A DNA stretch of 64,000 nt from Kofleriaceae bacterium (GTDB lineage Bacteria; Myxococcota_A; Polyangia; Haliangiales; Haliangiaceae), in NCBI GenBank assembly GCA_964203225.1, contig CAXNMK010000002.1, positions 737,664 through 801,663 of the forward strand, written 5' to 3'. The notes below the pieces were generated by a model that worked only from the letters and a program-made list of their open reading frames with translations, searched no databases and was not told the origin of the DNA. Position numbers and translations under genes: made by a program. This document shows positions 1 through 55,280 of this stretch, in pieces; within the stretch, counting starts at the first letter, position 1, and each line of letters starts with the position of its first letter.

Positions 1-1133
<1,133 letters not shown>

Positions 1134-1257
1134 CATGCCTGACATGCCTGACATGCCTGACCTGCGCGACCTGCGCGACCTGCGCGACCTGCGCGACCTG
1201 CGCGACCTGCGCGACCTGCGTGACCTGCCTGACGTGCGTGACGTGCGGGAGAGCGCC
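1134..1257. repeat. Intergenic 9-bp tandem repeat array (cctgacatg x3, then cgcgacctg x~6, then degenerate copies)
   Basis: Direct reading of perfect 9-mer tandem copies between the gspE stop and the gspF start. Confidence 0.9.
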
Positions 1258-1260
1258 TAG

Positions 1261-2517: not shown

Positions 2518-2544
2518 CTACCGCGTCAGACAAGGAGATCCCAC

Positions 2545-2994: not shown

Positions 2995-3007
2995 CCTGAG
3001 CACCTCC

Positions 3008-4629: not shown

Positions 4630-5306
4630 GCCGCCCCCGCCAGGCCGGCCTGACCCTGATCGAGATCATGATCGCCAGCGCGGTGATGGTGATCATGATG
4701 GCGCTCGCGTGGCGCACGATCTCCAACACGTCGGATGCGCGCCGCACCTACGAGGCGTTCGAGCAGCGCAACCACGAGCTGCGGATGGCGATGGCGCGCG
4801 TCGTCGCGGACTTCGAGCACGCGTACCTGTCCAAGAACGAGGACGGCTCGCAGTCGCACCCGCGCACGATGTTCATCGCCAAGTCGGGCACCAGGCTGCC
4901 CGAGCTGCGGTTCTCCACGCTCGGCCACCGCGTGCTGTGGGCGGACGCCAACGAGTCCGAGCAGACGGTGGTCCAGTACACCTCGCGCAACAACCCGGAC
5001 ATCCCGGGCCAGACCGACTGGGTCCGGCGCGAGCAGCGGCGGCTGTCCAACCTGCCTCCCGAGGAGGAGCCCGCCGAGAGCGACGTGCTGCTGACCAGGG
5101 TCGACAAGGTCGAGCTCCAGTACTTCAACTGGCGCACCGTCGACTGGCAGGACACCTGGGACACCACCCAGAGCGACGGCCAGAAGGGCTGGCTGCCCAG
5201 CCGCGTGCGGATCACCGTCACGGTCAAGGACCCCGGCGGCAAGGACTACAAGCTCACCACCCAGGCGCGGATCCTGCTCCAGGAACCGCTGAACTTCGTC
5301 CAATGA
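4626..5306 (+). CDS. gspJ: Minor pseudopilin (GspJ-like)
   Basis: GTG start overlapping the upstream stop. QAG|LTLIEIMIASAVMVIMM prepilin motif. Lies in the C-terminal frame of ORF 3765..5306. Confidence 0.55.
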   Translation: MSRPRQAGLTLIEIMIASAVMVIMMALAWRTISNTSDARRTYEAFEQRNHELRMAMARVVADFEHAYLSKNEDGSQSHPRTMFIAKSGTRLPELRFSTLGHRVLWADANESEQTVVQYTSRNNPDIPGQTDWVRREQRRLSNLPPEEEPAESDVLLTRVDKVELQYFNWRTVDWQDTWDTTQSDGQKGWLPSRVRITVTVKDPGGKDYKLTTQARILLQEPLNFVQ

Positions 5307-6730: not shown

Positions 6731-6734
6731 AACC

Positions 6735-8405
6735 ATGTCGAGTCGCGTGTTCGCGGTCGATCTCGGTGCGTGGAGCGTCAAGCTGGCCGTCGCCAGCCCC
6801 GGCATCCGTGGCGCCATGCTGCTCAACGTCGTCGAGCGTCTCGTCCCGCCCGGCGAGGCGCCCGCCGAGGTCCGCGCCAAGGCGGTCCTCGCGCAGCTCG
6901 TCACCGAGCTCAAGCTCCGGGACGACACCGGCTACCTCGGGGTGTACGGCGACCAGGTGTTCACCCAGGTGCTCGAGTTCGGGTTCAAGAACCTGCGCCG
7001 CGCCGAGCTCGACCGCGCCGTGGGTGGTGAGCTCGAGGGGGTGGTCCCGGTCGACCTCGAGGACATGGTCTACACGTTCGAGCCGCTGCCCCAGCCGGCC
7101 GAGGCGGCCGCCGCCGCGACCACCGCGCCGGTGCTCGCGCACGGGCGCGTCGCCCCTCCCACCGAGGGCATGCGCGTGCTGACGTACGCGATGCGCAAGG
7201 ATCGCGCGGAGCACCTGATCGAGGTCGGTGCCGATTGCGGGTTCTCCCCGCGCGGCGTCCTCGCCTGTGGTGGCGCGGCCATCCGGCTGGTGGCCCACAC
7301 GCCGTCGTTGACGCGCGCGCGCACCGAGGGTGCGGTCGCGGTGATCGACATCGGCCACGATCGCACCGACGTCATCGTGGTCGCCGACAACAAGGCGGTG
7401 TTCAGCCGCAGCATCGCGCGCGCGGGCAAGCACGTCACCGAGGCGATCGCGAGCTGGCGCAAGATCCCGTTCGCGGACGCCGAGTACGCCAAGCACGTCG
7501 ACGGCTTCATCGCCTCGGCCGCCGAGCCCGCCTCGTCGGAGGCGTGGGCGCGGATCCACGATGTCACGAGCAAGGTGCTGCAGCCGTTCGCGCGCGACCT
7601 GCGCCAGACGCTCGCGGCGTGTCGCGCCAAGACGGGCTTTGGCGCGCTCGCGGCGGTGGTCGTCGGCGGCGGGGCCCGGCTGCGCGGCATGAGCTCGTTC
7701 CTCACCGAGTCGCTCGGCATCCCGGCCTGGCGCCTCACCGGTGACGACGTGCTCGCGCTCGCGGGCCCCAGGCTCGGGGCCGACGTCGGCAACCTGCCGA
7801 TCGACAGCGCCGCGATGACCGTCGGCATGGCGTACGACTGCGCGGGCGGTCGCCCGCTGTTCGATCTGCGTTCCGGCGCGCTCGCGGTGCGCATGGACCT
7901 GTCGTTCCTGCGCGCGAAGGCGGTGCCGCTGGGCGCCGCGGTGATCGCGATCTCGGCGTTCGCGGCGGTCAGCGCGTACGCGGACCTCTACCGCCTGCGC
8001 AAGGCGGAGACCACGCTATCGGCCCGGATCGCCACCGAGTCCGCCGCGCACTTCAAGGGCCAGGCGAAGACCGCCGACGAGATCCTCCGCGAGACCGCCG
8101 GGGCCGCGGGCGGCTCGGTGTCACCGCTGCCGCGGGCCACCGCCTACGACCTGCTCCTCGAGATCAGCGAGAAGGTCCCGGCCCGGGACAAGATCACGCT
8201 CGACATCGAGCAGCTCCAGATCGACGACCAGAAGATCGACATCCAGGGCACGACCAAGACCAGCGATGGCATCGACCTGATGGTCGGCGAGCTCAAGAAG
8301 ATCGAGTGCTTCAAGGATGTCAGTCGCGGGCCGACGGACACCACCGCCGACGGGCTGAAGAAGTTCAAGCTGACCATCACCGGTCAGTGCATGCAGGGCA
8401 TGTGA
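6735..8405 (+). CDS. gspL: T2SS assembly protein GspL-like (actin-like ATPase fold cytoplasmic domain)
   Basis: N-terminal MSSRVFAVDLGAWSVKLAV sugar-kinase/actin-like fold as in GspL/PilM, with a later TM segment. Operon position. Confidence 0.55.
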   Translation: MSSRVFAVDLGAWSVKLAVASPGIRGAMLLNVVERLVPPGEAPAEVRAKAVLAQLVTELKLRDDTGYLGVYGDQVFTQVLEFGFKNLRRAELDRAVGGELEGVVPVDLEDMVYTFEPLPQPAEAAAAATTAPVLAHGRVAPPTEGMRVLTYAMRKDRAEHLIEVGADCGFSPRGVLACGGAAIRLVAHTPSLTRARTEGAVAVIDIGHDRTDVIVVADNKAVFSRSIARAGKHVTEAIASWRKIPFADAEYAKHVDGFIASAAEPASSEAWARIHDVTSKVLQPFARDLRQTLAACRAKTGFGALAAVVVGGGARLRGMSSFLTESLGIPAWRLTGDDVLALAGPRLGADVGNLPIDSAAMTVGMAYDCAGGRPLFDLRSGALAVRMDLSFLRAKAVPLGAAVIAISAFAAVSAYADLYRLRKAETTLSARIATESAAHFKGQAKTADEILRETAGAAGGSVSPLPRATAYDLLLEISEKVPARDKITLDIEQLQIDDQKIDIQGTTKTSDGIDLMVGELKKIECFKDVSRGPTDTTADGLKKFKLTITGQCMQGM

Positions 8406-8412
8406 GGCTGTC

Positions 8413-9006
8413 ATGACCATCGCCGAACGAGCACGTGACTTCTGGGACCGGATCTCGCCGCGCGAGCGCCGGCTCGTCGTGATCGCCGCGATCGCGGTGC
8501 CGCTGACGGTGGCCCTGTGGCTCGGCCTCGCGATCCAGGATGGCCTCGCCGCCAAGGAGAAGCGCGTCGAGAAGATGCGCAAGGCCCTGGTCGTGCTCGC
8601 CGATCTGCAGGCGCGCGGCCCGGCCACCCCGACCGACGACGTCGTCGCGACCATGGGTGTCGAGCCGATCAGCCTCGACACCTACCTGACCAACGCGGCC
8701 ACCAAGGCCGGCTTCACCCTGCGCGGCACGACGCCGCGCAACCCGGTCACCAAGAACGGGTTCGTCACCAACTCGGTGTCGTGCCAGGTGTCCGACCTCT
8801 CGATCGGGGAGCTCAAGGCGTTCCTCCAGGAGATCGAGTCCGGATCGAAGGTCGTGGTGGTGTCGCGGCTCGACGTGCGCCGCGACTTCAAAGCCAAGGA
8901 CAAGCTCGACGCCACGCTCGAGGTGTCGACGTACTCGAAGGAGCCCCCGACGAAGGCCGACGCGCCCGCCGGTGAGGCTGCCGGCTCGGCGGAGAAGGGC
9001 TCCTGA
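8413..9006 (+). CDS. gspM: T2SS protein GspM-like small bitopic membrane protein
   Basis: 197 aa with a single N-terminal TM helix (VVIAAIAVPLTVALWLGLAI). Sits between the gspL-like and gspN-like genes. Confidence 0.5.
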   Translation: MTIAERARDFWDRISPRERRLVVIAAIAVPLTVALWLGLAIQDGLAAKEKRVEKMRKALVVLADLQARGPATPTDDVVATMGVEPISLDTYLTNAATKAGFTLRGTTPRNPVTKNGFVTNSVSCQVSDLSIGELKAFLQEIESGSKVVVVSRLDVRRDFKAKDKLDATLEVSTYSKEPPTKADAPAGEAAGSAEKGS

Positions 9007-9008
9007 TC

Positions 9009-10284
9009 ATGGCGATCGCACTCCCACGCAAGGTCCTCACGTACGTCGGCCTGACGCTGCTCGCGCTGGTCACGTTCGTGTTCGCGCTCCAGCTCACGTT
9101 CCCGTACGGGCGCGTGAAGACCAAGATCATCGAGGCGCTGGCGTCGAAGTACGACGTGACGATCGGCAGCGTCGACCGCGGCCTCGTCCCGGGTCGGATG
9201 TACTTCAACGCGGTCACGCTGCGCTCGATCCCGTCGTCCGCCGCCGAGGTGCCGACCCTGTTCTTCATCGAGCGCCTCGAGATCGACCTCGGCCTGCTCG
9301 CGCTGCTGCGCGGCGCCGCGGAGGTCAACATCGACGCCAAGATCGGCCCCGGTCGCCTCGCGGGCGCGATCACGATCTCGAAGTCGAGCACCGTCATCGA
9401 CCTGACGGGATCGAGCCTGCCGGCGGCGTCGCTGCCGATGAAGGACGCGATCGGGCTGCCGATGTCGGGCAAGCTCGACTTCGCGGTCGACCTCACGCTG
9501 CCGAACGAGCGCAGCAAGACCGGCCGCACCTCGCAGAACTGGCAGAAGGCGACGGGCGCGATGCGGTTTGGGTGCCCGACGGGCTGCACGTTCGGTGACG
9601 GCAAGACCAAGCTCAAGCCCAAGCTCAAGAACGCCCGCAGCGCGGCGTTCGCGGGCGACGGCGTGGAGTTCGGCAAGATCAACGTCGACTCCCTGCTCGC
9701 GAAGGCCACCATCACGGGCGGTCAGCTCGAGCTGACGACGTTCGAGACCACGTCGCAGGACGGCGAGCTCCACGTGGACTTCGCGGCGACCCTGGCGCCG
9801 TCGTTCAGCGACTCGATGGTCGCGGGCTGCCTGCGGTTCAAGGGCAGCGAGAGCCTCCAGCAGCGCGAGCCGCGGACCGCCGCGGCGCTGTCGACCACGG
9901 GCGCGCAGCTCGGCCCCGACAACCTGTTCCACATCCGCCTCGACGGGAAGTTCAAGGACATGAAGCGGCTCGCGCAGTTCTGCGGGCCGGCGATCAAGAG
10001 CGCGGGCGCCGAGGACCTGAGCGGGACCCCGTCGCGCCCGAACCTGACCGTGGAGCCACCCGAGCTCCCGGCCGCGGGCTCCGCCGCGGTCACGCCGCCG
10101 CCGCCGCCGCCGGCCCCACGCCGGAGCCGCCGCGCGCGGCGCCCGCCGATGCGGCGCCTGCCGTCGATCCCGCGACCGGCGCGGTCGCGCGCCCGCACAC
10201 GCCGTCCCGCCCGGCGAGCCGCTCGCACCCGAGCACGCGGGCAGCGCCGCCGCCGAGCAGCCCGCCACGCCACCGGCGCCCTGA
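9009..10284 (+). CDS. gspN: T2SS protein GspN-like. The C-terminus is uncertain (Pro/Ala-rich low complexity with a possible frameshift near 10085-10110)
   Basis: N-terminal TM helix, then a ~330-aa domain resembling GspN. The called frame then becomes Arg-rich nonsense and reads through the opposite-strand moaDE gene. Alternative frames give plausible Pro/Ala-rich tails ending near 10284. Confidence 0.45.
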
Positions 10285-10337
10285 GCGATCACAACGCAGG
10301 CGCGACCGGGGGGGGGCCGGGGGGACCCTTCGGTGGC

Positions 10338-10997
10338 TCAGGGTCCGAGCCCGACCCACTCGCTGCCGTCGTCGCCGAACTCCTTCTTCCAGATCGGCAC
10401 TCGCTCCTTGAGGCGATCGATCATCGCGCGGCACGCGGTGAACGCCTCGGCGCGGTGCGGGGCGGCCGCGGCGATCACCACCGCGAGATCGCCGATCGCG
10501 AGCGTGCCGGTGCGGTGCTCCACCGCGAGGCGCACGCCGGGCAACTCGGCCTCGATCTCCTCGCACAGGCGGGTCATCTCGCGGACCGCCATCGAGCCGT
10601 AGGCCTCGTAGTGGAGGCGCTCGACGGTGACCCCGCGGCTGGTGCGCCGCACCATCCCCGTGAACGTCACGATCCCGCCCATGCCCGGCCCCCCCACGGC
10701 GGCGACGCAGCGGTCGAGCGACAGCGGCGTCTCGAGGAGCTGGACGTGCCGCGCGTCCGCGCCGCCGGCGACCGGCGGGATCAGCGCGAGCTCGTCTCCG
10801 TCGACGAGCGGGTGGTCGTCACCGGTGAAGTCCTGGTTGACCGCGCACCGGAACCGCCCGCGCAGGGCGGCGATCGCGGGGTGGCGCGCCGCGAGCGTGG
10901 CGACCGCATCCGCGACGATCGCGCTGGGCGGCAGCTCGAGCACCTCGCCGTCGGTGGCCAGGCGCTCGCGCAGCACGGCGAAGTAGAGGACGGAGAT
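10338..10997 (-). CDS. moaDE: Fused molybdopterin synthase MoaD (sulfur carrier, ..PPVAGG) - MoaE (catalytic subunit)
   Basis: N-terminal ~80 aa is ThiS/MoaD-like and ends in GG. It is in frame with a MoaE-like region (HYEAYGSMAVREMTRLCEEI...KERVPIWKKEF). No stop lies between them. Confidence 0.75.
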   Translation of the reverse strand: MSVLYFAVLRERLATDGEVLELPPSAIVADAVATLAARHPAIAALRGRFRCAVNQDFTGDDHPLVDGDELALIPPVAGGADARHVQLLETPLSLDRCVAAVGGPGMGGIVTFTGMVRRTSRGVTVERLHYEAYGSMAVREMTRLCEEIEAELPGVRLAVEHRTGTLAIGDLAVVIAAAAPHRAEAFTACRAMIDRLKERVPIWKKEFGDDGSEWVGLGP

Positions 10998-11024
10998 CCG
11001 CATCACCGCGGTGTCGTACCACCG

Positions 11025-29860: not shown

Positions 29861-30583
29861 GTGCGCGCCGGCGGGCCCCGCATCCCCACGCTCGACAAGG
29901 TGCAGTACGGACTGCACTACGCGATCGTGTCACAGAACAAGGACCCCGAGAACCTGGACCGGATCAAGGTCCGGTTCCCGTGGCTCGAGCAGGGCGACAA
30001 GGACGAGTCGTACTGGGCCCAGCTGCTGACTCCGATGGAGGGGAAGAAGTTCGGCTGGTACGTGCTGCCGGACGTCGACGATGTCGTGGTGGTGATGTTC
30101 ATCGCCGGTGACGTCGCCCAGCCGGTGATCGTCGGTGGTGTGTGGAGCACCCCCGACTACTCGCCGGAGCCGAACGAGGACGGGAAGAACAACTTCCGCG
30201 GCTACCGGAGCCGCACCGGCAACCGGATGATCTTCGACGACAGCAGCAAGCCGAAGTTCGTCCTCGTCGACAAGTCCTGCAAGAACATGCTCGGCATCGG
30301 CAACATGCCGAAGGATGGCGCCGGGCCAAACGTCGTCGCGATCTACAAGCCCCCGATGTCTGGCGCCGAAGGCGTCTCGATCTCGTCGATGGAGGGCAAG
30401 TTCGAGCTGACCTGCAAGGACGGCAAGCTGACCGTGCAGGCCGGAAAGAACATCAAGATCAACGCGAAGACGACGATCGACGTGAAGGCTGGCACCGACA
30501 TCACGCTCGAGGGGAGCTCGGCAGCGAAGGCTACCTCGAGCTCCCCGTCGCATTACGACGCCCCCAAGATCATGATCGGATAA
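29861..30583 (+). CDS. Spike protein, gpV/gp5 N-terminal OB-fold family (Afp8-like), paralog 1
   Basis: GLHYAIVSQNKDPENLDRIKVRFPWLEQ...YWAQLLTPMEGKKFGWYVLPDVDDVVVVMFIAGDVAQPVIVGGVWS is the conserved gpV/VgrG OB-domain block. Confidence 0.75.
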   Translation: MRAGGPRIPTLDKVQYGLHYAIVSQNKDPENLDRIKVRFPWLEQGDKDESYWAQLLTPMEGKKFGWYVLPDVDDVVVVMFIAGDVAQPVIVGGVWSTPDYSPEPNEDGKNNFRGYRSRTGNRMIFDDSSKPKFVLVDKSCKNMLGIGNMPKDGAGPNVVAIYKPPMSGAEGVSISSMEGKFELTCKDGKLTVQAGKNIKINAKTTIDVKAGTDITLEGSSAAKATSSSPSHYDAPKIMIG

Positions 30584-40952: not shown

Positions 40953-41801
40953 GTGTTCCTCAAGTATCTCGACTTCGTCTTTGCGCCGTTCCGCGCCCTC
41001 CAGAACAAGTGGCTCGGCGTCAAGAACATCAAGGGCAACATCCAGGTCGACATCAACCGCGCGAAGTCCCTCGGGCAGCGCGGGAAGAACTTCGCGGGCG
41101 AGGTCAACCAGTTCAACGCCAAGGCGCAGGGGCAGCCGGGTGCGCAGCCGCAGGGCGCGCCCGCCCAGCCGCAGGGCTACCCACAGCCAGGTCAACAGGG
41201 AGCGCATATGCAGCAGCCACCGCAACCCGGGATGCCCGGGATGCCACCCGGGATGCCCGGCATGCCGGGCGCGCAGGGCGCCCCGCCCGCACCGGGCGCG
41301 CCCAGTCCGAACCCGCCGCTGCGCGTCAGCGGAGCGTGGTTCTGGAAGAAGAAGTTCTGCACGCAGTGTCAGCAGCAGCTCGACGCATCGTGGGACGCCT
41401 GTCCGTACTGCGCACAGATCGCGCAACAGGCGGCGGCCGCGCCCGCGAAGCTGCAGGCCCTCAAGACCCAGGCGTTTGTGATCGACGCCAGCGGCGGGCC
41501 GAGCGGCGTGCAGCTGTGCGGCTGGCTGGTGGCGCTGCAGGGACCGCAGAAGGGGGAGCTGTTCTCGCTGCAACCCACCACGATCATCGGGACCGATGCG
41601 AAGGCGACGGTCGTGCTGCAGGACAAGTTCATGTCGAGCAAGCACGCCGAGGTCAAGGCCGAGAACGGGATCTGGGTCCTCAAGGACAGCGGTTCGACCA
41701 ACGGCACCTACGTCAACAACAAGCGCGTCGAGCGCCACGAACTGGTCGACAACGACTTCGTGAAGTTCGGCAGCTTCATGCTCAAGTTCAAGTCTCTATG
41801 A
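40953..41801 (+). CDS. FHA-domain protein with internal zinc ribbon and Pro/Gln-rich linker (FHA-1)
   Basis: CTQCQQQLDASWDACPYC zinc ribbon. C-terminal FHA (GTDAKATVVLQDKFMSSKHAEV...GSTNGTYVNNKRV...LVDNDFVKFG). Confidence 0.75.
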   Translation: MFLKYLDFVFAPFRALQNKWLGVKNIKGNIQVDINRAKSLGQRGKNFAGEVNQFNAKAQGQPGAQPQGAPAQPQGYPQPGQQGAHMQQPPQPGMPGMPPGMPGMPGAQGAPPAPGAPSPNPPLRVSGAWFWKKKFCTQCQQQLDASWDACPYCAQIAQQAAAAPAKLQALKTQAFVIDASGGPSGVQLCGWLVALQGPQKGELFSLQPTTIIGTDAKATVVLQDKFMSSKHAEVKAENGIWVLKDSGSTNGTYVNNKRVERHELVDNDFVKFGSFMLKFKSL

Positions 41802-43330
41802 CCAGCTGGAACCTCATCGCTCGTCGCGCGAACGTCGCGCTGGTCGCGCTGTTCTCGATGTTCCTCGGGGTGTTCGGACCGGGCCTCGCGGCCGCCGAAG
41901 GCGTCGAGGTACTTCTCTCCGTGAAGGATCCGGAGCCAGGCAGCAAGCAGGCCAACGACGCCCCGCAGATCGAGGCCACCGTGATCGGCGCGGCCAAGGT
42001 GCCCGTCGAGAAGTTCATCCTGACCGACCCGAGCGCCAAGCCGCCGGTCATGCTCAAGGCGACCTCGCTGCGCCCGTTCACCTCCGGCGGCGAGACCATC
42101 GCCATCGCGCTGGTGTTCAACGGCCAGGAGATCTGGATCGGTAACGACGACCTCGAGGCAGAGGACAGCCCGGCTCGTTACCTGGGCATCCTCAAGAGCC
42201 TCAAGACCGCGCTCCAGGAGGTTCCGTTCGCCACCGCCGGCCCGGAGGGCAGCAAGGGCATCCTGATCTCGTACGCGGACAAACCCGAGATCAAGGTCCC
42301 GATGGGGCCGCTCGGCGCTATCACCGCCGAGTCCCTCGGCACCCAAAAGGACTACCAAAAGAAGATCGGAACCGTGATGGTCGAGGGTATTTCGTTCGCC
42401 CTCGGCGAGCTCAGCGCGGTGACGGCGTCCCGCAAGGCGCTGATCGTCGTGTGCGACGGCAACGACTCGAGTCCCGACACCGCCAAGGCCAAGCTTCTCG
42501 ACCTCAAGAAGCAGGCGGCGAGCGACAAGGTCCAGACGTTCGCGATCATCTACAAGGGCCAGTTGTCCGACCCGGCGAACTTGGTCACGACGATGATCCC
42601 AAACGCGACGACGGTGACCAACGCCGAGGGCATCGCCGCCGCGATCACGTCGATCCTCAAGCGCATGGATGACCGCGTCTACCTGACGTTCCCGGGCTAC
42701 GACGCCAAGCAGAAGGCGGGCTTCAACTGGGACGGCAAGGCGCACGACCTCGTCCTCAAGGTCGACAAGGATGAGATCGAAACCGAGCCGCTCATGCTGA
42801 GGGCCTGGAGCCCGGTGAAGAAGAGTGGCTTCCCGTGGGGCATCCTGATCGGCGTCCTCGTGTTCCTGCTGCTGCTGATCATCATCGGCGTCAAGGTGTT
42901 CGGCAAGAAGGAGGAGCCGGAGCCGATGCCCATGCAGATGCCGATGATGCCGATGGGCGCGCCCGAGCCGCCCAGGCCTGCGGGCCCGGTCAAGACCGTC
43001 ATGATCAGCCTCAATGGCGGTGACGACGGGTTCCCGATCGTCGGGTGGCTCGTGCCGCTCAATGGTCCGGCCGCCTACCAGACCTATCGCCTGCGTTCGG
43101 GTGGCACCAAGATCGGCACCCAGCAGCCCGCGGACATCGTGATCAACGACGGCTTCATGAGCACCGAGCACTGCATGATCCAGTGCTCGCCGAACGGGTT
43201 CATGCTGGTGGACAACGGGTCGACCAACGGGTGCTACGTCAACGATGGCAAGGTCACCAAGTACGACCTCGTCGACAACGACGTGATCACGCTCGGCAAG
43301 ACAAACCTCAAGTTCAAGTCCATCAACTGA
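41801..43330 (+). CDS. Membrane-anchored FHA-domain protein with a periplasmic vWA-like domain (FHA-2)
   Basis: Signal/TM at the N-terminus, a vWA-like segment (ALIVVCDGNDSS), a TM helix (GILIGVLVFLLLLIIIGV) and a cytoplasmic C-terminal FHA (IGTQQPADIVINDGFMSTEHCMI...GSTNGCYVNDGKV). Confidence 0.7.
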   Translation, partial: TSWNLIARRANVALVALFSMFLGVFGPGLAAAEGVEVLLSVKDPEPGSKQANDAPQIEATVIGAAKVPVEKFILTDPSAKPPVMLKATSLRPFTSGGETIAIALVFNGQEIWIGNDDLEAEDSPARYLGILKSLKTALQEVPFATAGPEGSKGILISYADKPEIKVPMGPLGAITAESLGTQKDYQKKIGTVMVEGISFALGELSAVTASRKALIVVCDGNDSSPDTAKAKLLDLKKQAASDKVQTFAIIYKGQLSDPANLVTTMIPNATTVTNAEGIAAAITSILKRMDDRVYLTFPGYDAKQKAGFNWDGKAHDLVLKVDKDEIETEPLMLRAWSPVKKSGFPWGILIGVLVFLLLLIIIGVKVFGKKEEPEPMPMQMPMMPMGAPEPPRPAGPVKTVMISLNGGDDGFPIVGWLVPLNGPAAYQTYRLRSGGTKIGTQQPADIVINDGFMSTEHCMIQCSPNGFMLVDNGSTNGCYVNDGKVTKYDLVDNDVITLGKTNLKFKSIN

Positions 43331-43340
43331 ACCGTTTGCC

Positions 43341-43802
43341 GTGACCACCGAAGTCTTGATCGCCGTCATCGTGGGCGGCGCGGTCGTGTTGCTCGTGGTG
43401 ATCGGCCTCATCGCGAAGAAGAACGCCGGGCCGAAGGACCAGCGCGCGTGCGGTGGGTGCCGGCGCGTGATGCTGCCGGTGTGGACCAAGTGCCTGTTCT
43501 GCGGCTGGGCTCCCGGCGCTCGCCTCGAGTTCATCCTCGGGCCGATGGCCAACCAGACGCTCCAGCTGTCCGCCGAGGTCACGACGATGGGCTCGGTCGC
43601 CGGAAACACGGTCGTCCTCGCCGATCCCGCAGTGTCCCGGAAGCACGCGGGCATCCGCAAGATCGACGGCGCCTTCGAACTGGCCGATCTCGGCTCGACC
43701 AACGGCGTCTATGTCAACGGCCACAAGGTCCCGAAGAAGACGCTCGACGCCGGCGACATCATCCGCGTTGGCAACACCGAAGCCGTGTTCAAGCGCGACT
43801 GA
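43341..43802 (+). CDS. Membrane-anchored zinc-ribbon FHA-domain protein (FHA-3)
   Basis: N-terminal TM helix, CGGC...CLFC zinc ribbon, and an FHA domain (SRKHAGIRKIDGAFELADLGSTNGVYVNGHKV). Confidence 0.75.
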   Translation: MTTEVLIAVIVGGAVVLLVVIGLIAKKNAGPKDQRACGGCRRVMLPVWTKCLFCGWAPGARLEFILGPMANQTLQLSAEVTTMGSVAGNTVVLADPAVSRKHAGIRKIDGAFELADLGSTNGVYVNGHKVPKKTLDAGDIIRVGNTEAVFKRD

Positions 43803-43899
43803 GCAGCGAAGGCAGCAGCAAGGCAGGCGGATCGTACGAACAGGCGCGCCGCGACCAGTTCGTACGACCACGAGCGACGCGCCGCGCAGCGGCGGTGGA

Positions 43900-44075
43900 C
43901 GGCGCTCACCGCGCGGTGAAGGAGTGCCGCGCAGCGGCCGACTGAGAGGCCCAGGGTGAGCCGCGCAGCGGCCCGGTCGGCCAACGACGAGCGACGCCCG
44001 GACGCCGCGCAGCGGCCGCGGACCGCTCTCGCTCCGCTCGAAGGAGTGCCGCGCAGCGACCGACTGAAACACCGT
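43900..44075. repeat. Intergenic direct repeats (~27 bp GAAGGAGTGCCGCGCAGCGRCCGACTGA x2, plus GCCGCGCAGCGGC motif x5)
   Basis: Read directly from the sequence between the FHA-3 stop and the FHA-4 start (43803-44393). Confidence 0.7.
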
Positions 44076-44393
44076 CCGCGTTCTCGCCGGGCGGTGGGGC
44101 TGGTCGTCTCCGCGTGTTGCATCGCGCGTCGGGCGCTCTCAGGGCGTACTCGGCATCGACGGACCGGGCCGACGCCCCGGCGGCTCCACCACGGTGGGCG
44201 GCGCCCCGGCGGACCGTCCCGAACGACGCTGGTCGGGCGGCGGTCCGGTGGGTCCGGCGGTCCGGTGGTCCGGTGCCTGTGCCCGTGTCTGCGTGGGCTG
44301 CGGCCGCGCCGTCGAGCGGGGCTGCGGCCGTGCGTCGGGGGCTCCCGGGTCTGGCGCCCGCGCCGGCCGCCCGGTACGATAAGGAACACCTGA

Positions 44394-47080
<2,687 letters not shown>

Positions 47081-47101: not shown

Positions 47102-48715
<1,614 letters not shown>

Positions 48716-48735
48716 AGGTACACTGACCAGAACCC

Positions 48736-49127
<392 letters not shown>

Positions 49128-49143
<16 letters not shown>

Positions 49144-49358
49144 GGAAGCAGGACATCGAGATCGTGATCAACGCCAAGGGCGAGGTCACCTACGAGGTCA
49201 AGGGCGTCAAGGGCGGGAGCTGCCTCGCCGAGACCGAGTTCCTGCTCGCCGCGCTGGGCGGGGACGGCTCCGTCCTCGAGCAGCAGAAGACCGGCGAGTT
49301 CTATGAACAATCAGAAGGTTACGTTTCGACCTGGGCCGGGGAAGCCAAGGACGAGTAA
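49128..49358 (+). CDS. DUF2997-like small protein
   Basis: QDIEIVINAKGEVTYEVKGVKGGSCLAETEFLLAALG resembles DUF2997, which is usually found next to DUF1257. Confidence 0.4.
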
Positions 49359-49367
49359 CCCCGTAGG

Positions 49368-50027
49368 ATGACTGCCGTGTCGACCGATCAAGAGCAGACC
49401 GACCTCCTCCCGGGGGCCGAAGGCGCCTCCACCGAACCTGCGGCGGAAGGGCTGACGGACGAGCTTGCTCGAAAGTACGACCCGGAGCGCCTGCTCAAGA
49501 TGGTCTCGCGGCGTGCCGGCAAGGGCACGACGCTCGACCACGACATCCGCGCCAAGTACGAGAAGCGGTTCGGCGTGGACCTCGGGCACGTCCGGATCTA
49601 CACGGGCGAGTTCGCCGAGGAGTTCAACCGCCAGCGCAGCGCGTACGCGGTGACGATCGGCTCGACGGGCATGATCCTCATGGGCGGGTCGCCCAACAAG
49701 TCGATGGGCACGAACGCCGGCCAGGCGCTGCTCGCCCACGAGCTGACGCACGTCGCCCAGGCCAAGCGCGGCCTGCACCGCGCCGCCCACGAGGGCGCGA
49801 TGCCCCTGGCGACCGAGAGCCACGAGGCCGAGGCCGAGGCCGTCGAGGCCGACGTCGCCCGTGGTGGCGACGGCGCGGCAAGCGCTGAGCCCGGCGGCGC
49901 CGCGAGCAAACTCGCCAAGGATGCCAAGGACGCGCTGCACGAACAGATCAAGCAGCGGGTCCTCGACATGGCCGCCGATGCCGCGCGCGCGTTCTACTGG
50001 CGCAACGGCGTCGATCGCCGCCCCTGA
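49368..50027 (+). CDS. DUF4157-like HExxH protein (domain that typically heads eCIS cargo/toxin proteins)
   Basis: LDHDIRAKYEKRFGVDLGHVRIYTG...AYAVTIGSTGMIL...AHELTHVAQ matches the DUF4157 pattern with its HExxH. Confidence 0.55.
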   Translation: MTAVSTDQEQTDLLPGAEGASTEPAAEGLTDELARKYDPERLLKMVSRRAGKGTTLDHDIRAKYEKRFGVDLGHVRIYTGEFAEEFNRQRSAYAVTIGSTGMILMGGSPNKSMGTNAGQALLAHELTHVAQAKRGLHRAAHEGAMPLATESHEAEAEAVEADVARGGDGAASAEPGGAASKLAKDAKDALHEQIKQRVLDMAADAARAFYWRNGVDRRP

Positions 50028-50176
50028 GAGGTGGACGCAACCTCGTCCGGGGGGCCGACGCGGCTTGCCGCGTGGGCGAGGGGCGAGCCCACGTGGACTC
50101 GAACGGGCCCCACGGGGGCGCGCATCCGGCCACCGAGCTTTGAGCCCGCGGTGATTCCTGCGGTATCCTGTCCCTG

Positions 50177-50857
50177 ATGAGTTCTCCTGAGGCCGACGCT
50201 GGTGTCGTCCAGTCCCGCGTTCAGCTCGAGAGGCTGGTCGCCGATGACGAACTGGCCGGTCGCACGATCGCCGGGTTCGCGGCGCCCTCGGTGCTGCTCC
50301 GGGGGCTCGACCTCGACGGGGTGACGCTGGATCGCCTCGACCTGCGCGGCGCCGACGGCGACGAGACCCGCCTCGAGCGCGCGGAGCTCAAGCTGAGCGA
50401 TCTCCGCACCTCGCAGTGGAAGGGCGCGCTGTGGAACCGCGTCAAGGCCAAGGACTGCGACATGACCGAGCTCGACTTCAGCGGCGCGCAGCTGCTCCGG
50501 TGCGAGTTCGGGCCGGTGCGGATGGCGCGCGTGCGCTTCCACCGCGCGCGGATCCAGGGCACGACGTTCAAGGAGTCGGAGCTGTACTCGGCCGACTTCG
50601 CCGGCGCCGTGCTGCTCAAGGTCGTGTTCGAGGGCTACGAGCACGCCACCGTGTCGCTGTCGCGCACGGACTGGACGGGTGCATCGCTGTTCGACGTCGA
50701 CTTCAAGCGCGCGAACATGTACGGCGCGAACCTGCGCGGTGCGGTGTTCGTCCGCTGCGACCTGCGCGGGGTCAGCCTGTGCAGTGCTGATCTCACCGGC
50801 GCGCGCCTCGTCGGCTGCGACACCACCGGCGCCGACCTCGACGGAGCCACGTTCTAG
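50177..50857 (+). CDS. Pentapeptide-repeat protein (candidate eCIS payload/accessory)
   Basis: Tandem A(D/N)LxG-type pentapeptide repeats throughout (ANLRGAVFVRCDLRGVSLCSADLTGARLVGCDTTGADLDGATF). Confidence 0.7.
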   Translation: MSSPEADAGVVQSRVQLERLVADDELAGRTIAGFAAPSVLLRGLDLDGVTLDRLDLRGADGDETRLERAELKLSDLRTSQWKGALWNRVKAKDCDMTELDFSGAQLLRCEFGPVRMARVRFHRARIQGTTFKESELYSADFAGAVLLKVVFEGYEHATVSLSRTDWTGASLFDVDFKRANMYGANLRGAVFVRCDLRGVSLCSADLTGARLVGCDTTGADLDGATF

Positions 50858-50877
50858 GACCTCGTAGGAGCCCGCCC

Positions 50878-51498
50878 ATGCCGCCCCGCCCCGATCTCCG
50901 TGACATCGCTTCGAACGTCCGCGAGGCGTTCGCCGATGCTGACCGCGACACCCTGCTCGACGTCCTGACCTTCGTGGTCAAGGAGTATGTCGTCGAGGGG
51001 CCGCCGCCGATGATGATCCACCAGGCCGAGACGCTCTCGGACCTCAAGGGCATGTCGTTCGCCCAGCTGATCGCCGCGATGCAGACGCGCTTCGATCACG
51101 CCGAGCTGGCGATGTTTGTCGTCGATGGCGAGCAGGTCAGCGTGCGCGTCGGCGGTGTCGTCCAGCCGCTGCTGCCCAGCCGGCAGCCGATCGCCGAGCC
51201 CCCGCGGCAGGCGCCAGGGGTCCGCGTTGTCGAGACCACGCTGGCCCAGCAGCGCCCCGCTGCGCCCGCGCCGGTCGCCGCCGTCCCCGCGCCGCGGCCC
51301 GCTGCCCCGGCGTCGGCGCCGTCGGCACAGCCGCCCACGCGGGGCCTGTCCCTGCGCGGGCGGCCCACGGGGGAGGGTGGGGATGCACCGCCGCTTGCCG
51401 CGCCGCCGCCCGCGGCCGCCGCGCCGCCGCCGCCGGACCGCCCCGAGGGTGGGGGCGACGATGCCTCCGCGCGGTTCAGCCTGCTGGAGCTCGACTGA
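50878..51498 (+). CDS. Hypothetical protein with a Pro/Ala-rich C-terminal half
   Basis: ORF with a protein-like N-terminus. No domain recognised. Confidence 0.3.
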   Translation: MPPRPDLRDIASNVREAFADADRDTLLDVLTFVVKEYVVEGPPPMMIHQAETLSDLKGMSFAQLIAAMQTRFDHAELAMFVVDGEQVSVRVGGVVQPLLPSRQPIAEPPRQAPGVRVVETTLAQQRPAAPAPVAAVPAPRPAAPASAPSAQPPTRGLSLRGRPTGEGGDAPPLAAPPPAAAAPPPPDRPEGGGDDASARFSLLELD

Positions 51499-52041: not shown

Positions 52042-52854
52042 TCAGTAGCGCTGCATCTGGTGCGGGTAGCCCTGCGGCGGCACCCACAGTGGATCGACGA
52101 ACGTCTGCGTCAGCACGACGGTGATGTTGTCCGTGCCGCCGTTGTTGTTGGCGGCGCGGATCAGGTTCTCGGCGACCACCTCGATCGAGTCGCCCGACGT
52201 CATGATCTCGCGGATCATCCAGTCGTCGACGAGATCGGACAGGCCGTCACAGCACAGCAGGAACACGTCGTTGTGTTCGGGGACGAACGTGTTGTGCTCG
52301 ATCTCGACGTTCGCATCGAGGCCGACGGCCCGGATGATCACGTTCGAAGTCGCGGGGCCGAGCGTGCCGACCAGGTCAGGACGGTCCTGGTACAGGTTGC
52401 GGAGCGAGTGGTCGCGCGTCAGCTGGCGCAGCTGGCCCTGGCGAAGCAGGTACGCGCGCGAGTCGCCGCAGTGGCAGATGTGGACGAGGCCCTCCTCGAA
52501 CCGGAAGCCGACCGCGGTGGTGCCCATCCCGTGGCAGCTGTGGTCCATCTGAGCGCGCTGGAACACCGCCATGTTGGCGGCCTTCATCGCGGTGGTCAGG
52601 GGATCCTGACCCGGCGGGGACGGCGGATCGCTGGTCTTGAGCGCGTGGACGATGGTCCGGATCGCAATGTCGGAGGCGACCTGACCCGACGCATGGCCTC
52701 CCATGCCGTCGCAGACGACGTACACGCCGAGGAAGTCGTCGTAGTACATCGCATCCTCGTTCTGCGTGCGCTGGGCGCCGACGTCGGTGCGGCCCACCGC
52801 GCGCAGGAGGAACCTCTCGACGGGAACCGGGCGGCCGACGCTGTCGTAGCTCAC
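52042..52854 (-). CDS. PP2C-family Ser/Thr protein phosphatase
   Basis: GRTDVGAQRTQNEDAMY...VVCDGMGGHASGQVAS...TTAVGFRFEEGLVHICHCGDSRAYLL...DNITVVL are canonical PP2C motifs. Confidence 0.85.
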   Translation of the reverse strand: MSYDSVGRPVPVERFLLRAVGRTDVGAQRTQNEDAMYYDDFLGVYVVCDGMGGHASGQVASDIAIRTIVHALKTSDPPSPPGQDPLTTAMKAANMAVFQRAQMDHSCHGMGTTAVGFRFEEGLVHICHCGDSRAYLLRQGQLRQLTRDHSLRNLYQDRPDLVGTLGPATSNVIIRAVGLDANVEIEHNTFVPEHNDVFLLCCDGLSDLVDDWMIREIMTSGDSIEVVAENLIRAANNNGGTDNITVVLTQTFVDPLWVPPQGYPHQMQRY

Positions 52855-52942: not shown

Positions 52943-53638
52943 TCATTCGGTCACCCGTCGGTTCGGGAGCGTGGCTCGCTTGGGGATGTCGATCCAGGGG
53001 GCGCGCAGCTCGGCGCGCAGCTCGGCGATCACCGCCCGCACCGCGTGGCCGGGGGTGTCCTCGAGAGGCGGCAGCTTCCAGCTGGTCCGGATCGCGGTGC
53101 GGACCTCGGCCACCGCGTCGATCCGGTCCTCCTCGGCGGGATCGACCATCTCGAACGTCTTCTCGAACTCGAGGTCGGGGCGGTGGAGGTCTCGCAGCAG
53201 CGCCTGCGGGGTGGTCTCGGCGAGCTGGTCCTCGATGTCCTGTGGGCGCTCGACCTCGCGGGGCTCCGCGACCGCCATCAGGTTGCCGATCATCGCGAGG
53301 TCGATCATCGGCATGGTCGGGTCGAGACGCAGCGTGATCGCCTCGCGGAACATCAGCAGGTCGTCCGGGGGCTCGATGCGGCGACGGTGCGCCTCGAGGA
53401 GCGCCGGATCGACCGCGGCGATCGCGCGCTGCCGGCGCTCGCGGACCTCCGCGATGTCGGGATCCTCGGTCGAGCCCGGGGCCTCCCCGGCCTCGACCTG
53501 ATCGAACGAGGGCAGCCCGAACCACTTCTCGAGCTCCGCCTTCGTCGCCGCGTCGACGAGCTCCTCGAGCGGCTGTTCGAGGGAGCGCTCGAGCAGCTGC
53601 TTGACGGTCGGGTCGCGCTTGTCGTCGTCGGTCGACAT
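52943..53638 (-). CDS. Hypothetical acidic protein (co-directional with the kinase)
   Basis: 231-aa ORF. No domain recognised. Confidence 0.3.
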   Translation of the reverse strand: MSTDDDKRDPTVKQLLERSLEQPLEELVDAATKAELEKWFGLPSFDQVEAGEAPGSTEDPDIAEVRERRQRAIAAVDPALLEAHRRRIEPPDDLLMFREAITLRLDPTMPMIDLAMIGNLMAVAEPREVERPQDIEDQLAETTPQALLRDLHRPDLEFEKTFEMVDPAEEDRIDAVAEVRTAIRTSWKLPPLEDTPGHAVRAVIAELRAELRAPWIDIPKRATLPNRRVTE

Positions 53639-53657: not shown

Positions 53658-55280
53658 TCAGAGCAGCTGCAGGTAGGCGACGTACGCGCCCGCGCCCGAG
53701 GCGATGCCGATCAGCAGCGAGACCACCCAGAACAGCGGCGTGGCCCCGTGCGAGGTGGTACCCTCCACCACCGGCTGGAGCGCGCTGCCCGTGCGCGCGA
53801 CCGACACCACGCCCTCGCTGGGCTGCAGCATGATGGTCTTGTTGGGGTTGCCACCACCCGGCGGCTGCATGCCCGGCGGCTGCATCATCCCCGGCGGCTG
53901 CATGCCGGGCTGCATCATGCCCGGCGGCTGCATGCCCTGGCCCGGGATCTGGGGCGCCATTCCGGCGACGATCGTCTTCTGGTTCGAGCCCGACGGCTGG
54001 GATCCCCCCCCCCCCGGGGGCTGGAACCCGCCCTGCGGCGGCATCCCGCCCGGGGGCTGGAACCCGCCCTGCGGCGGCATCCCGCCCGGGGGCTGGAACC
54101 CGCCCTGCGGCTGCATCCCGCCCGGGGGCTGGAACCCGCCCTGCGGCGGCATCCCGCCCGGGGGCTGGAACCCGCCCTGCGGCGGCATCCCGCCGGGGCC
54201 CTGCGGTTGCATCGACCCACCCGGCGCGAATGGGCTCATGCCGGCGATCATGGTCTTCTGCTGGGCAGAGGCGGCCACGTAACCGCCCTGCGGCGGGGGC
54301 TGCTGTTGCGGCTGTGGCTGCATGTGCTGCCCGTGGCCGGCGTAGGGCGCCTGCGGGACAAGGCCCGGCGGCAGCTGCCCCGGCCCGGCGACGACGGTCT
54401 TCGGGACACCACCGCCACCGATCGCCACGCCACCACCCGCGAGCTCGGCGAACACCTGCTGGCAGTGCTGCATCATCTCGCCGGCGGACTGGTAGCGCCG
54501 CGCCGCGTCCTTCTCGAGCGCGCGCCGGACCACCTGCTGCACCGAGTATGGGATCGAGTCCGCCATCGGCGGGATCTCACGCTTGAGGTGCATCTGGATC
54601 ACCGTCATCGGGTTCTCGTCGTTGAACGGCACGTTGCCGGTCAGCATCTCGTACGCGAGGATGCCGAGGGCGTAGAGGTCCGAGCGGGCGTCGAGCTGCC
54701 CGCCGCGGCCCTGTTCGGGCGACATGTACTGCGGGGTCCCGAACACCACGCCCGCCTGCGTCTTCATGCGGTCACCCTCGAGCAGCTTCGCGACCGAGAA
54801 GTCGAGCAGCTTCACGAAGTCCGGCGAGCCCGCCATGTTCAGCAGGAACACGTTGTCGGGCTTGATGTCGCGGTGGATGATCCCGATCGAGTGGGCCTCG
54901 GCGAGCGAGGCGCAGCACTGGATCATGATCTTCATCACGCGGTTTGGCGTGAGCGGGCCCTTGGCCACGGCATCGCGGAGCGAGATGCCGTCGAGGAACT
55001 CCATCGTCATGAACAGGCGACCCTCGGTCGTCTGTCCGAAGTCGAACATCCGGATCGTGTTCGGGTGCTGCAGGCGCGAGCACGCCTTCGCCTCGTTGTA
55101 GAACCGCTGGACCCAGTTCGGATCCGCCGCCATCTGGGCGTTGAGGATCTTCACCGCGATCACGCGGTCGATCGAGATCTGGCGGGCCTTGTAGACCACG
55201 CCCATGCCACCTTCACCGACGCGGACCTGGATCTCGTACCGGTTGTCGATGACCTGGCCGACGAGAGGATCGTGGGTCAT
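53658..55280 (-). CDS. Hanks-type Ser/Thr protein kinase with C-terminal PQG-rich repeats and a TM anchor
   Basis: Start MTHDPLVGQVIDNRYEI. Kinase motifs GEGGMGVVYKA, VAVK, HRDIKPDN, DFS, GTPQYMSPE. C-terminal (GGFQPPGGMPPQ)x5 repeats and a terminal hydrophobic helix. The upstream ORF extension to 56084 was rejected. Confidence 0.85.
   Translation of the reverse strand: MTHDPLVGQVIDNRYEIQVRVGEGGMGVVYKARQISIDRVIAVKILNAQMAADPNWVQRFYNEAKACSRLQHPNTIRMFDFGQTTEGRLFMTMEFLDGISLRDAVAKGPLTPNRVMKIMIQCCASLAEAHSIGIIHRDIKPDNVFLLNMAGSPDFVKLLDFSVAKLLEGDRMKTQAGVVFGTPQYMSPEQGRGGQLDARSDLYALGILAYEMLTGNVPFNDENPMTVIQMHLKREIPPMADSIPYSVQQVVRRALEKDAARRYQSAGEMMQHCQQVFAELAGGGVAIGGGGVPKTVVAGPGQLPPGLVPQAPYAGHGQHMQPQPQQQPPPQGGYVAASAQQKTMIAGMSPFAPGGSMQPQGPGGMPPQGGFQPPGGMPPQGGFQPPGGMQPQGGFQPPGGMPPQGGFQPPGGMPPQGGFQPPGGGGSQPSGSNQKTIVAGMAPQIPGQGMQPPGMMQPGMQPPGMMQPPGMQPPGGGNPNKTIMLQPSEGVVSVARTGSALQPVVEGTTSHGATPLFWVVSLLIGIASGAGAYVAYLQLL

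Follow-up and report, generated by a model that had tools for sequence, protein, structure and literature searches.

A 64,000-nucleotide stretch of the genome of a Kofleriaceae bacterium (contig CAXNMK010000002.1; hereafter the window, with positions counted from its first nucleotide) encodes a contractile injection system (CIS) whose gene cluster holds, between its baseplate genes and the gene for its Cis15-type AAA ATPase, a cassette of four genes for FHA-domain proteins, here called FHA-1 to FHA-4. Two of these proteins, FHA-2 and FHA-3, are predicted to be inner-membrane proteins with their FHA domains at the cytoplasmic face. The cassette, together with a Hanks-type Ser/Thr kinase and a PP2C phosphatase encoded nearby, shows a near-obligate linkage to this CIS lineage. 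We infer, at a probability of about 0.5, that the FHA proteins, kinase and phosphatase form a membrane-localised phosphothreonine (pThr) sensing and docking module for a Streptomyces-type CIS.

Topology and domains of the FHA proteins

FHA-2 (510 amino acids; 41798..43330, plus strand) was delineated from its open reading frame (ORF), hydropathy, Pfam matches and an AlphaFold2 model. Its ATG lies at 41798, 3 nt before the start at 41801 given in an earlier note on this DNA, and overlaps the FHA-1 stop codon by 4 nt (ATGA). That note had read the protein as a signal or transmembrane segment, a periplasmic vWA-like domain, a second transmembrane helix and a cytoplasmic FHA domain, and all four elements were recovered. 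Hydrophobic residues cluster at ~11-33 and 343-372. The first of these segments has the form of a cleavable-type Sec signal peptide (residues 1-33, 41798-41896), with RR, a 14-residue h-region and a cleavage site between A31-A32-A33 and E34; the A-x-A-[ED] site recurs across 50 homologues, and the rest of the segment is only 25% conserved. The second is a transmembrane helix (residues 343-368, 42824-42901) followed directly by KVFGKKEE, which fits the predicted type I topology with a cytoplasmic C-terminus. After the helix come a disordered Pro/Met-rich linker (residues 369-420, 42902-43057) with an invariant K399-T400 and the FHA domain (residues 421-507, 43058-43318), which matches Pfam PF00498 over residues 437-500 with 59.8 bits against a curated cut-off of 20.7 bits that all four FHA proteins exceed.

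The periplasmic part of FHA-2 (residues 35-340, 41900-42817) consists of a beta-sandwich, a vWA domain with a degenerate metal-ion-dependent adhesion site (MIDAS) and a C-terminal beta module. An AlphaFold2 model built on an alignment of 50 homologues has a per-residue confidence (pLDDT) of 85-95 across residues 40-340 and shows a small beta-sandwich, an alpha/beta domain with the vWA fold and C-terminal beta strands. Its 50 best Foldseek matches in the PDB were all vWA/integrin-I domains or vWA-containing chains (probability 1.00, TM-score on the target 0.6-0.69), the top match being ArnB in the ArnAB complex (8s05_B). The assignment needed the structure model because sequence-only searches failed for the window protein: no match to a Pfam VWA family was found at E<=0.01, and a sequence search of the PDB returned matches to the FHA part only, none to the vWA part. 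Some homologues carry weak or passing matches to PF00092 or PF13519, and one (P0243) passes VWA with 28.4 bits against a cut-off of 23.8. The DxSxS of the MIDAS after beta-1 (residues 101-108) is replaced by N108-G109-Q110-E111-I112, within a family-wide N-G-Q-E-[VI]-W-I-G-N in which G109, W113, G115 and N116 are invariant, and just the beta-4 Asp (D220-G-x-D223) of the site is kept; the module is therefore a metal-site-less vWA variant. Within the family (472 homologues in a 90%-clustered database, with source names indicating Kofleriaceae, Deltaproteobacteria or Myxococcota MAG (metagenome-assembled genome) proteins), conservation stands at 79% for the FHA domain and at 53-64% for the periplasmic parts.

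FHA-3 (153 amino acids; 43341..43802, plus strand), which begins 10 nt after FHA-2 and has 1,507 homologues, is a compact counterpart, delineated from its ORF, hydropathy and Pfam. Its parts agree with the earlier description: a hydrophobic stretch within residues 1-29 forms a predicted N-terminal transmembrane anchor (residues ~5-27, then KK), a four-Cys zinc ribbon follows (C37/C40/C51/C54, 43449-43502), whose two CxxC pairs vary little or not at all among 80 sequences, and the FHA domain (residues 63-151) matches PF00498 with 63.4 bits. Hydropathy thus predicts both proteins to reside in the inner membrane, rather than to be soluble, with their FHA domains on the cytoplasmic side. The features of the two proteins lie well outside what chance would give. 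The gap between FHA-3 and FHA-4 (43803-44392) is 590 nt long in the window and ~40-90 nt in three related loci (L001, L003 and L004). It contains an imperfect tandem duplication of ~120 nt (units at about 43842-43945 and 43959-44067), including two copies of GAAGGAGTGCCGCGCAGCG[GA]CCGACTGA that occur nowhere else in the window.

The two remaining proteins flank this pair. FHA-1 (282 amino acids, without a transmembrane segment; 40953..41801, plus strand; Pfam FHA 65.2 bits) comprises a conserved N-terminal region of ~50 residues, a disordered region rich in Pro, Gln, Gly and Met, a CxxC...CxxC ribbon, an invariant K171-T172-Q-A and the FHA domain. Its N-terminal helix, examined as a possible amphipathic anchor, has a hydrophobic moment of 0.43 and a mean hydrophobicity of 0.26. 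FHA-4 (895 amino acids; 44393..47080, plus strand; Pfam FHA 56.1 bits) has a canonical FHA domain at its N-terminus, followed by a disordered Pro/Gly-rich region of ~300 residues and a long coiled coil. Matches of the FHA proteins to NCBIfam FhaB/FipA, OdhI, GltG, TagH and SctD were at the level of the FHA domain only and all far below cut-off, so none is assigned to these equivalogs.

We aligned all four FHA domains to GarA, and to alignments of their own families, and read off the residues of the canonical pThr-binding set, that is, the Arg of G-R, the Ser and His of S-x-x-H and the Asn of N-G. FHA-4 is the only member of the cassette with the full set (GR, SRRH and NGT), and in its family GR, SRxH and NGT are all invariant across 36 sequences. 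The other three retain Ser, His and Asn and have lost the phosphate-binding Arg of GR family-wide, leaving the canonical set incomplete: FHA-1 has IGT in place of IGR, FHA-2 has IGT with STEH (T441 is invariant in 50 sequences) and FHA-3 has [IM]GS (79 of 80 sequences) with SRKH.

FHA-1 and FHA-2 also share a conserved K-T-x-x-hydrophobic motif in a disordered stretch about 12-40 residues before the FHA domain. In FHA-1 this is KTQAF (residues 171-175, 41463-41477; invariant in 52 of 52 sequences) and in FHA-2 KTVM[IFL] (residues 399-403, 42992-43006; 50 of 50). These motifs are candidate kinase targets, with the Thr as phospho-acceptor, or FHA-docking sites. Low-complexity sequence rich in Pro, Gly, Met and Gln occurs at 41100-41300 in FHA-1, at 42902-43057 in the FHA-2 linker, at 44700-45600 in FHA-4 and at 53700-54400 in the kinase, and these regions carry similar short repeats, such as PGM, GGPPGM and GGFQPP. 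A property common to these regions, for instance co-condensation, may account for the similarity, or it may be no more than lineage composition.

Linkage to the CIS, the kinase and phosphatase, and transcription of the cassette

In Pfam and NCBIfam profile scans, the CIS cluster spans ~16.9 to ~50 kb of the window on the plus strand and unites sheath, tube, spike, gp25, Baseplate_J, gpI, Cis15 AAA ATPase and Cis16 genes, the complement of an extracellular CIS (eCIS) of the Afp/PVC-like type. In a sequence search of the PDB, the nearest solved sheaths were those of the cytoplasmic Streptomyces CIS (8bky and 8bl4, E 4e-88 and 8e-87; PMC10066040), followed in third place by that of the membrane-bound, T6SS-like CIS of haloarchaea (9ezm, E 6e-70; PMC11566945); the sheaths of PVC, AFP, tCIS and AlgoCIS scored far lower. 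The baseplate gave the same picture, with Cis11 matching the CIS-Sc baseplate 9gtp (E 1.6e-79) and Cis12 matching chain E of that structure. By sequence similarity, the closest solved relatives of this CIS are cell-bound types.

To assess linkage, we scanned one genome per species and compared the resulting loci with the proteins of the window; 89 relatives were found and 80 loci kept, almost all from MAGs of Kofleriaceae, Haliangiales or Myxococcales. FHA-1 adjoins FHA-2 in 69 of 69 loci, and FHA-3 adjoins FHA-2 in 76 of 77 (73 of 77 in the automatic count, three of the four misses being ORF-boundary artefacts and one locus, L068, the sole real exception). The cis13-like gene lies upstream of the cassette in 56 of the 60 loci that extend 3 kb or more in that direction, its apparent absences representing short contigs or insertions between it and FHA-1, and the AAA ATPase gene lies downstream in 48 of the 49 loci that extend 6.5 kb or more on that side. 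This order is kept down to 42% FHA-2 identity and in a distant locus (L085) whose FHA-2 relative is 27% identical in its periplasmic part. It was unchanged in four metagenome contigs examined by gene calls and Pfam labels, one of them encoding the 27% identical relative, and the cassette has held its position despite insertions elsewhere in the cluster (L003, L048 and L052). Mean identity to the window proteins was highest for the AAA ATPase (87%) and DUF1257 (86%), followed by Cis12 (81%), Cis11 (79%), the Cis13-like protein (79%), FHA-3 (77%), FHA-4 (61%), FHA-1 (60%) and FHA-2 (56%).

The kinase and phosphatase genes sit 9-12 kb downstream of FHA-2 and FHA-3 on the convergent strand. The Hanks-type kinase (540 amino acids; 53658..55280, minus strand, with its start at 55280; Pkinase 163 bits) has an N-terminal kinase domain, a disordered region rich in Pro, Gln and Gly, and a transmembrane helix at its extreme C-terminus that forms a tail anchor; it has no periplasmic domain. 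With FHA-2 and FHA-3, it makes up the full set of predicted membrane proteins of the CIS cluster. The PP2C Ser/Thr phosphatase (270 amino acids; 52042..52854, minus strand; 52.7 bits) is separated from it by a conserved acidic protein to which no function is assigned (231 amino acids; 52943..53638, minus strand). Among the related loci of sufficient extent, at least 15 likewise encode, on the opposite strand, the phosphatase (78-89% identical), the 231-residue protein and the kinase's C-terminal anchor. A Hanks-type kinase, a PP2C phosphatase and FHA proteins are thus encoded together with an injection machine, the combination found in the threonine phosphorylation pathway of type VI secretion systems (T6SS).

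An exhaustive HMMER search with the periplasmic module of FHA-2 (residues 35-342) as query gave 426 representatives at the 50% clustering level, 122 of them at E<=1e-30; those retrieved fall into four architectures. The first, a common one, is a signal peptide, the module and a transmembrane helix with almost no cytoplasmic tail (~340-355 residues); the second is the module, a transmembrane helix and an FHA domain (~500 residues); the third comprises very large multi-domain proteins. The fourth is represented by P0348, which combines an N-terminal Hanks kinase domain, a transmembrane helix, the module and a second transmembrane helix and is encoded outside any CIS locus (L086:10001-12109). The T6SS kinase PpkA, a transmembrane protein whose vWA sensor domain is extracellular (PMC3224232), shows this same arrangement. 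As the window kinase lacks a periplasmic domain and the module is fused to a kinase in P0348, FHA-2 may supply the sensor in trans.

The cassette also appears to carry its own promoter. An extended -10-like motif, TGGTAGGAT (40900..40908, plus strand), lies 45 nt upstream of FHA-1 and is the window's single match to TGnTA[AG]nnT. Across 1.24 Mb of related loci, the pattern occurs 61 times, 45 of them within 200 nt upstream of FHA-1, against a background rate of 0.007 per 150 nt; a few others lie upstream of FHA-4 or the pentapeptide-repeat gene. In the window, the motif follows a terminator-like hairpin with a 10-bp stem and a T-run between cis13-like and FHA-1 (40859..40894, plus strand), but such a hairpin and T-run occur at this place in only 10 of 57 related loci, so the terminator is not a general feature. 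The conserved motif suggests that the FHA cassette is probably a separate transcription unit within the cluster.

A proposed phosphorylation-controlled dock and its alternatives

In the model we favour, the MIDAS-less vWA module of FHA-2 would bind an envelope ligand or partner in the periplasm, and binding would change how FHA-2 clusters or is exposed at its cytoplasmic end. The sensor-less kinase would then phosphorylate Thr residues, for which the K-T-x-x-hydrophobic motifs of FHA-1 and FHA-2 are candidates, and the canonical FHA domain of FHA-4 would read the phosphorylated sites. FHA-4 would act as a scaffold that assembles a hub at FHA-2 and FHA-3, and this membrane hub would recruit the CIS baseplate, or license it, so that assembly or firing takes place at the inner membrane. 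With PP2C resetting the phosphorylation, the whole would serve as both a checkpoint and a docking site.

The T6SS threonine phosphorylation pathway (PpkA/TagE, PppA/TagG and Fha1/TagH) is a close parallel, as it likewise places a membrane Hanks kinase, a PP2C phosphatase and disordered FHA proteins in a contractile injection cluster. In that system, the periplasmic vWA domain is a likely sensor (PMC3224232, PMC13584744), and Fha proteins, which combine an FHA domain with a disordered region, are proposed to nucleate assembly at the membrane and form condensates (bioRxiv 10.1101/2023.12.21.572528; PMC13584744). The window differs in its structural gene set, which is eCIS- and CIS-Sc-like (Cis11, Cis12, Cis13-like, Cis15 and Cis16) with no TssJLM found; in carrying the vWA module on an FHA protein rather than on the kinase; and in encoding four FHA proteins, of which two are membrane-anchored and three lack the GR Arg. 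We rejected the FHA proteins as TagH/Fha1 equivalogs: they reach 26-36 bits with TIGR03354, whose cut-off is 120, and the structural genes match phage and eCIS families (Pvc16_N, CIS_tube, Baseplate_J, Tail_P2_I and CIS13).

Among non-T6SS systems, the Streptomyces coelicolor protein CisA (Sco4242) offers a precedent for a membrane partner. It is bitopic, with a disordered cytoplasmic part and a folded extracytoplasmic domain, and is a proposed adaptor and sensor (PMC12237407). Membrane recruitment, firing and in situ contraction all require CisA, but purified particles lack it (PMC12237407, PMC10066040). FHA-2 is similarly bitopic and occupies a CisA-type position just downstream of the baseplate genes (cis11, cis12 and cis13-like) of a CIS-Sc-type cluster. 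By its published description (PMC12237407), CisA has the opposite orientation, N-in/C-out, to the signal-peptide type I FHA-2, its domain is solute-binding-like rather than vWA, and it lacks an FHA domain. No kinase or phosphatase is reported for CisA, and the host of the window is a diderm myxobacterium. In haloarchaea, a cluster-encoded membrane protein with a cytoplasmic domain, Hbor_38620, correlates with the membrane-bound mode (PMC11566945). That anchor has six transmembrane helices and a cytoplasmic domain of ~150 residues, and no FHA, vWA, kinase or phosphatase is reported with it.

Two further systems use similar building blocks. Sulfolobus ArnA (zinc finger and FHA) and ArnB (vWA) share the zinc ribbon, FHA and vWA elements, and ArnA was among the sequence matches of FHA-4. 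ArnA and ArnB are soluble cytoplasmic proteins that regulate archaellum expression, whereas the vWA of the window is predicted to be periplasmic, with the zinc ribbons on the other side of the membrane; as a whole, FHA-2 superposed poorly on ArnB (TM-score 0.33, root-mean-square deviation 13.6). In the Agl-Glt gliding machine of Myxococcus xanthus, GltJ has a zinc-ribbon-type domain. GltG and GltJ resemble the window proteins as bitopic inner-membrane proteins of Myxococcota with disordered linkers and a periplasmic domain; they differ from FHA-2 and its vWA in being N-in, in their TonB-C-like periplasmic domain and in serving gliding. GltG, which has a cytoplasmic FHA domain, and GltJ physically connect a scaffold in the cytoplasm with a complex in the periplasm (PMC11761067), and the NCBIfam GltG model gave weak matches to the FHA domain only (25-49 bits against a cut-off of 650).

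How non-T6SS CISs meet the membrane and time their firing is an open question. The solutions described so far, namely tail fibres, the tCIS baseplate extension, Streptomyces CisA and the haloarchaeal six-transmembrane protein, do not involve phosphorylation. Our literature searches combining FHA or kinase with CIS returned T6SS papers only, and global eCIS surveys, a review and a tail-fibre catalogue contained no mention of FHA domains, Ser/Thr kinases or PP2C. The cluster suggests that phosphorylation controls how the device is coupled to the cell membrane; for non-T6SS systems, we found no such link in the literature searched. With four FHA genes, one kinase and one phosphatase, it is a compact, conserved candidate for post-translational control of a non-T6SS CIS in ~80 species. 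More tentatively, Kofleriaceae might possess a further mode of CIS-membrane coupling, in which a cytoplasmic, Streptomyces-type CIS of a Gram-negative, predator-like lineage is recruited to the inner membrane and licensed there by Thr phosphorylation through a 'split PpkA' sensor and an Arg-less FHA dock, in convergence with the T6SS pathway; this broader proposal is possible but doubtful. If true, the kinase/phosphatase/FHA logic of the T6SS arose more than once. Experimental work will be slowed by the fact that every relative found is an uncultured MAG.

Several observations weigh against a phosphorylation-dependent dock. The replacement of the GR Arg by Thr or Ser in FHA-1, FHA-2 and FHA-3 makes the classical pThr reading doubtful for the two membrane proteins, FHA-2 and FHA-3. 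FHA-2, at a mean identity of 56%, evolves faster than the structural proteins (79-87%). Its family is not intrinsically part of a CIS, as vWA-TM-FHA proteins occur outside CIS loci and the module occurs in non-CIS kinases (as in L086): a second locus in one Kofleriaceae genome (L068:8390-15794) encodes two tandem vWA-TM-FHA paralogues (500 and 479 residues) with no CIS genes, along with an FG-GAP/cadherin-like protein and a 1,011-residue protein with two AAA domains, and a Ser/Thr kinase ~4 kb away. Myxococcota have many FHA, kinase and PP2C genes (PMC8460266), and this background of the lineage could therefore explain some of the linkage. The Cis13-like protein and the effector-associated eCIS_core/DUF4157 genes are also compatible with a released particle. 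Finally, contact between the FHA proteins and the CIS is a postulate of the model, as are the ligand and the phosphorylation targets.

One alternative is a purely signalling role, in which the cassette, kinase and phosphatase would time the making, loading or release of the CIS, for example through transcription, the Cis15 ATPase or lysis of the producer cell, and the particle would be a released eCIS that never docks. We consider this rather unlikely. A promoter-like motif specific to the cassette, the kinase/PP2C pair and a periplasmic module common to non-CIS kinases and loci would all be expected of it; the Cis13-like protein, Cis16 (Pvc16_N), Cis15 and eCIS_core genes are typical of eCIS-type clusters; and the top fold match of FHA-2, ArnB, belongs to a phospho-regulated pair. 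However, Pfam and NCBIfam scans of the cassette's proteins gave no DNA-binding domain, and four FHA proteins, two of them membrane-anchored, between the baseplate genes and cis15 exceed the needs of a generic regulator. The closest characterised relatives of the CIS are not released systems, and no lysis cassette was detected among the ORFs scanned, which is a weak negative.

The earlier note had proposed that FHA-2 and FHA-3 anchor the particle to the inner membrane, making it an intracellular or envelope-attached device rather than a freely released eCIS. This proposal is supported in part: the inner-membrane prediction, the linkage to the CIS and the cell-bound relatives agree with it. In its static form, FHA-2 (perhaps as an oligomeric ring of vWA domains) and FHA-3 would make a permanent inner-membrane platform on whose non-canonical FHA domains the baseplate docks free of phosphorylation, much like SctD/YscD of type III secretion or TssL/M of the T6SS, and the device would be a T6SS-like cell-bound injector; we judge this unlikely. 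It would suit the bitopic form of FHA-2, with a cytoplasmic FHA and a periplasmic domain; the loss of the GR Arg in FHA-1, FHA-2 and FHA-3, which fits non-phospho docking; and the matches to Pfam Yop-YscD_cpl, an FHA-clan domain, which are nearly as strong as those to FHA. To our knowledge, the FHA-like domains of SctD also lack the pThr-binding residues. In conservation, FHA-3 (77%) and FHA-2's FHA domain (79%) equal the baseplate proteins, and the nearest solved CISs include the membrane-bound haloarchaeal system. The Cis13-like protein, as conserved as Cis11, is also unexpectedly invariant for a receptor-binding fibre, a class reported to behave otherwise (PMC12923769).

Against a permanent platform stand the conserved kinase and phosphatase, which argue for a dynamic, phosphorylation-dependent step, and the periplasmic module, which is the fastest-evolving part and is fused to a kinase in P0348. 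Scans of the cluster proteins gave no match to a Tss membrane-complex family (TssJLM-like) and no outer-membrane or periplasm-spanning component. FHA-2 was also rejected as an SctD/YscD protein, as TIGR02500 scores 14.8 bits against a cut-off of 86 and its periplasmic part has the vWA fold. The loss of Arg in three FHA proteins, the fusion of the module to a kinase elsewhere and the cassette's apparent status as a separate transcription unit favour signalling over a static anchor. Together with the kinase/PP2C pair, the kinase-fused relatives and the separate promoter point to a regulated, probably transient coupling, as in the sensing and docking module that we propose.

That the FHA genes are mere passengers, an unrelated Myxococcota signalling operon kept inside the cluster by descent and without a CIS function, is highly improbable: the abundance of such genes in the phylum and the paralogous pair away from any CIS would allow it, but their position and order are kept in ~80 species-level genomes, across the divergence and despite the insertions described above, and the genes are tightly packed, with the 4-nt overlap of FHA-1 and FHA-2 and the 10 nt between FHA-2 and FHA-3.

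Other features of the cluster and its surroundings

The window has a G+C content of ~70%. By profile matches, the CIS cluster begins on the plus strand with Pvc16_N/Cis16, two sheath genes, two gp19-type tube genes and DUF6760, followed by two large proteins without a Pfam match, CIS_tube, gpD and two spike (Phage_base_V) genes. Next come gp25, Baseplate_J/Cis11, Tail_P2_I/Cis12, the cis13-like gene, the four FHA genes and the Cis15-type AAA ATPase gene, and the 3' end consists of DUF1257, DUF2997, an eCIS_core (DUF4157) protein and a pentapeptide-repeat protein, all on the plus strand. A defence-system reading of the locus was rejected, as the PADLOC matches were generic (kinase to PD-T4-6, AAA ATPase to IetA, coiled coil to LmuB).

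Cis11 (Baseplate_J; 1,012 amino acids; 35348..38386, plus strand), whose nearest solved relative is the Streptomyces baseplate noted above, is followed by Cis12 (Tail_P2_I; 38389..39294, plus strand), which carries a PASTA domain at its N-terminus (residues 12-73; 37.7 bits against a cut-off of 23.2). This domain is present in L001, L003 and L004 and absent from the distant L085; elsewhere, PASTA domains are typical of PknB-type kinases and of penicillin-binding proteins that bind peptidoglycan fragments. The Cis13-like protein (511 amino acids, without a transmembrane segment; 39291..40826, plus strand) resembles the CIS13 family in its N-terminal ~150 residues only. Among the 120 matches listed, it is 79-96% identical and 509-513 residues long. 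A sequence search of the PDB gave no match for it, and its AlphaFold2 model, based on an alignment of sequences 80-96% identical, has a mean pLDDT of 50, too low for use.

The Cis15-type AAA+ ATPase gene (537 amino acids; 47102..48715, plus strand) lies directly 3' of FHA-4. It is followed at 48727-51498 by a tail of small genes that is kept in nearly all related loci and comprises DUF1257, DUF2997 (49143-49355), the eCIS_core/DUF4157 protein, which has a weak metallopeptidase-like match, the pentapeptide-repeat protein and a 206-residue protein without a Pfam match. In other loci, a small TPR protein comes after the genes matching this tail. These genes are probably related to effectors or their loading.

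Both spike genes have Phage_base_V OB domains (29861-30583 and 30588-34246). In the second, which lies in sequence of ~79% G+C, the coding region is broken into two overlapping frames (30588-33338 and 31643-34246). L001 and L003 each have one homologous protein, 1,200-1,254 residues long, but L004 has two, of 764 and 203 residues. The split could represent a frameshift, an assembly error or true variation. Upstream of the CIS cluster, at 36-11471, lies a set of genes resembling a type II secretion system (T2SS) or type IV pilus (T2SSE ATPase, T2SSF, N-methyl pseudopilin, PilM-like and T2SSM), including an 820-residue ORF with a weak AsmA-like N-terminus and a 6-O-methylguanine-methyltransferase DNA-binding domain. 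A minus-strand aspartyl-tRNA synthetase-like gene separates this set from the CIS cluster.

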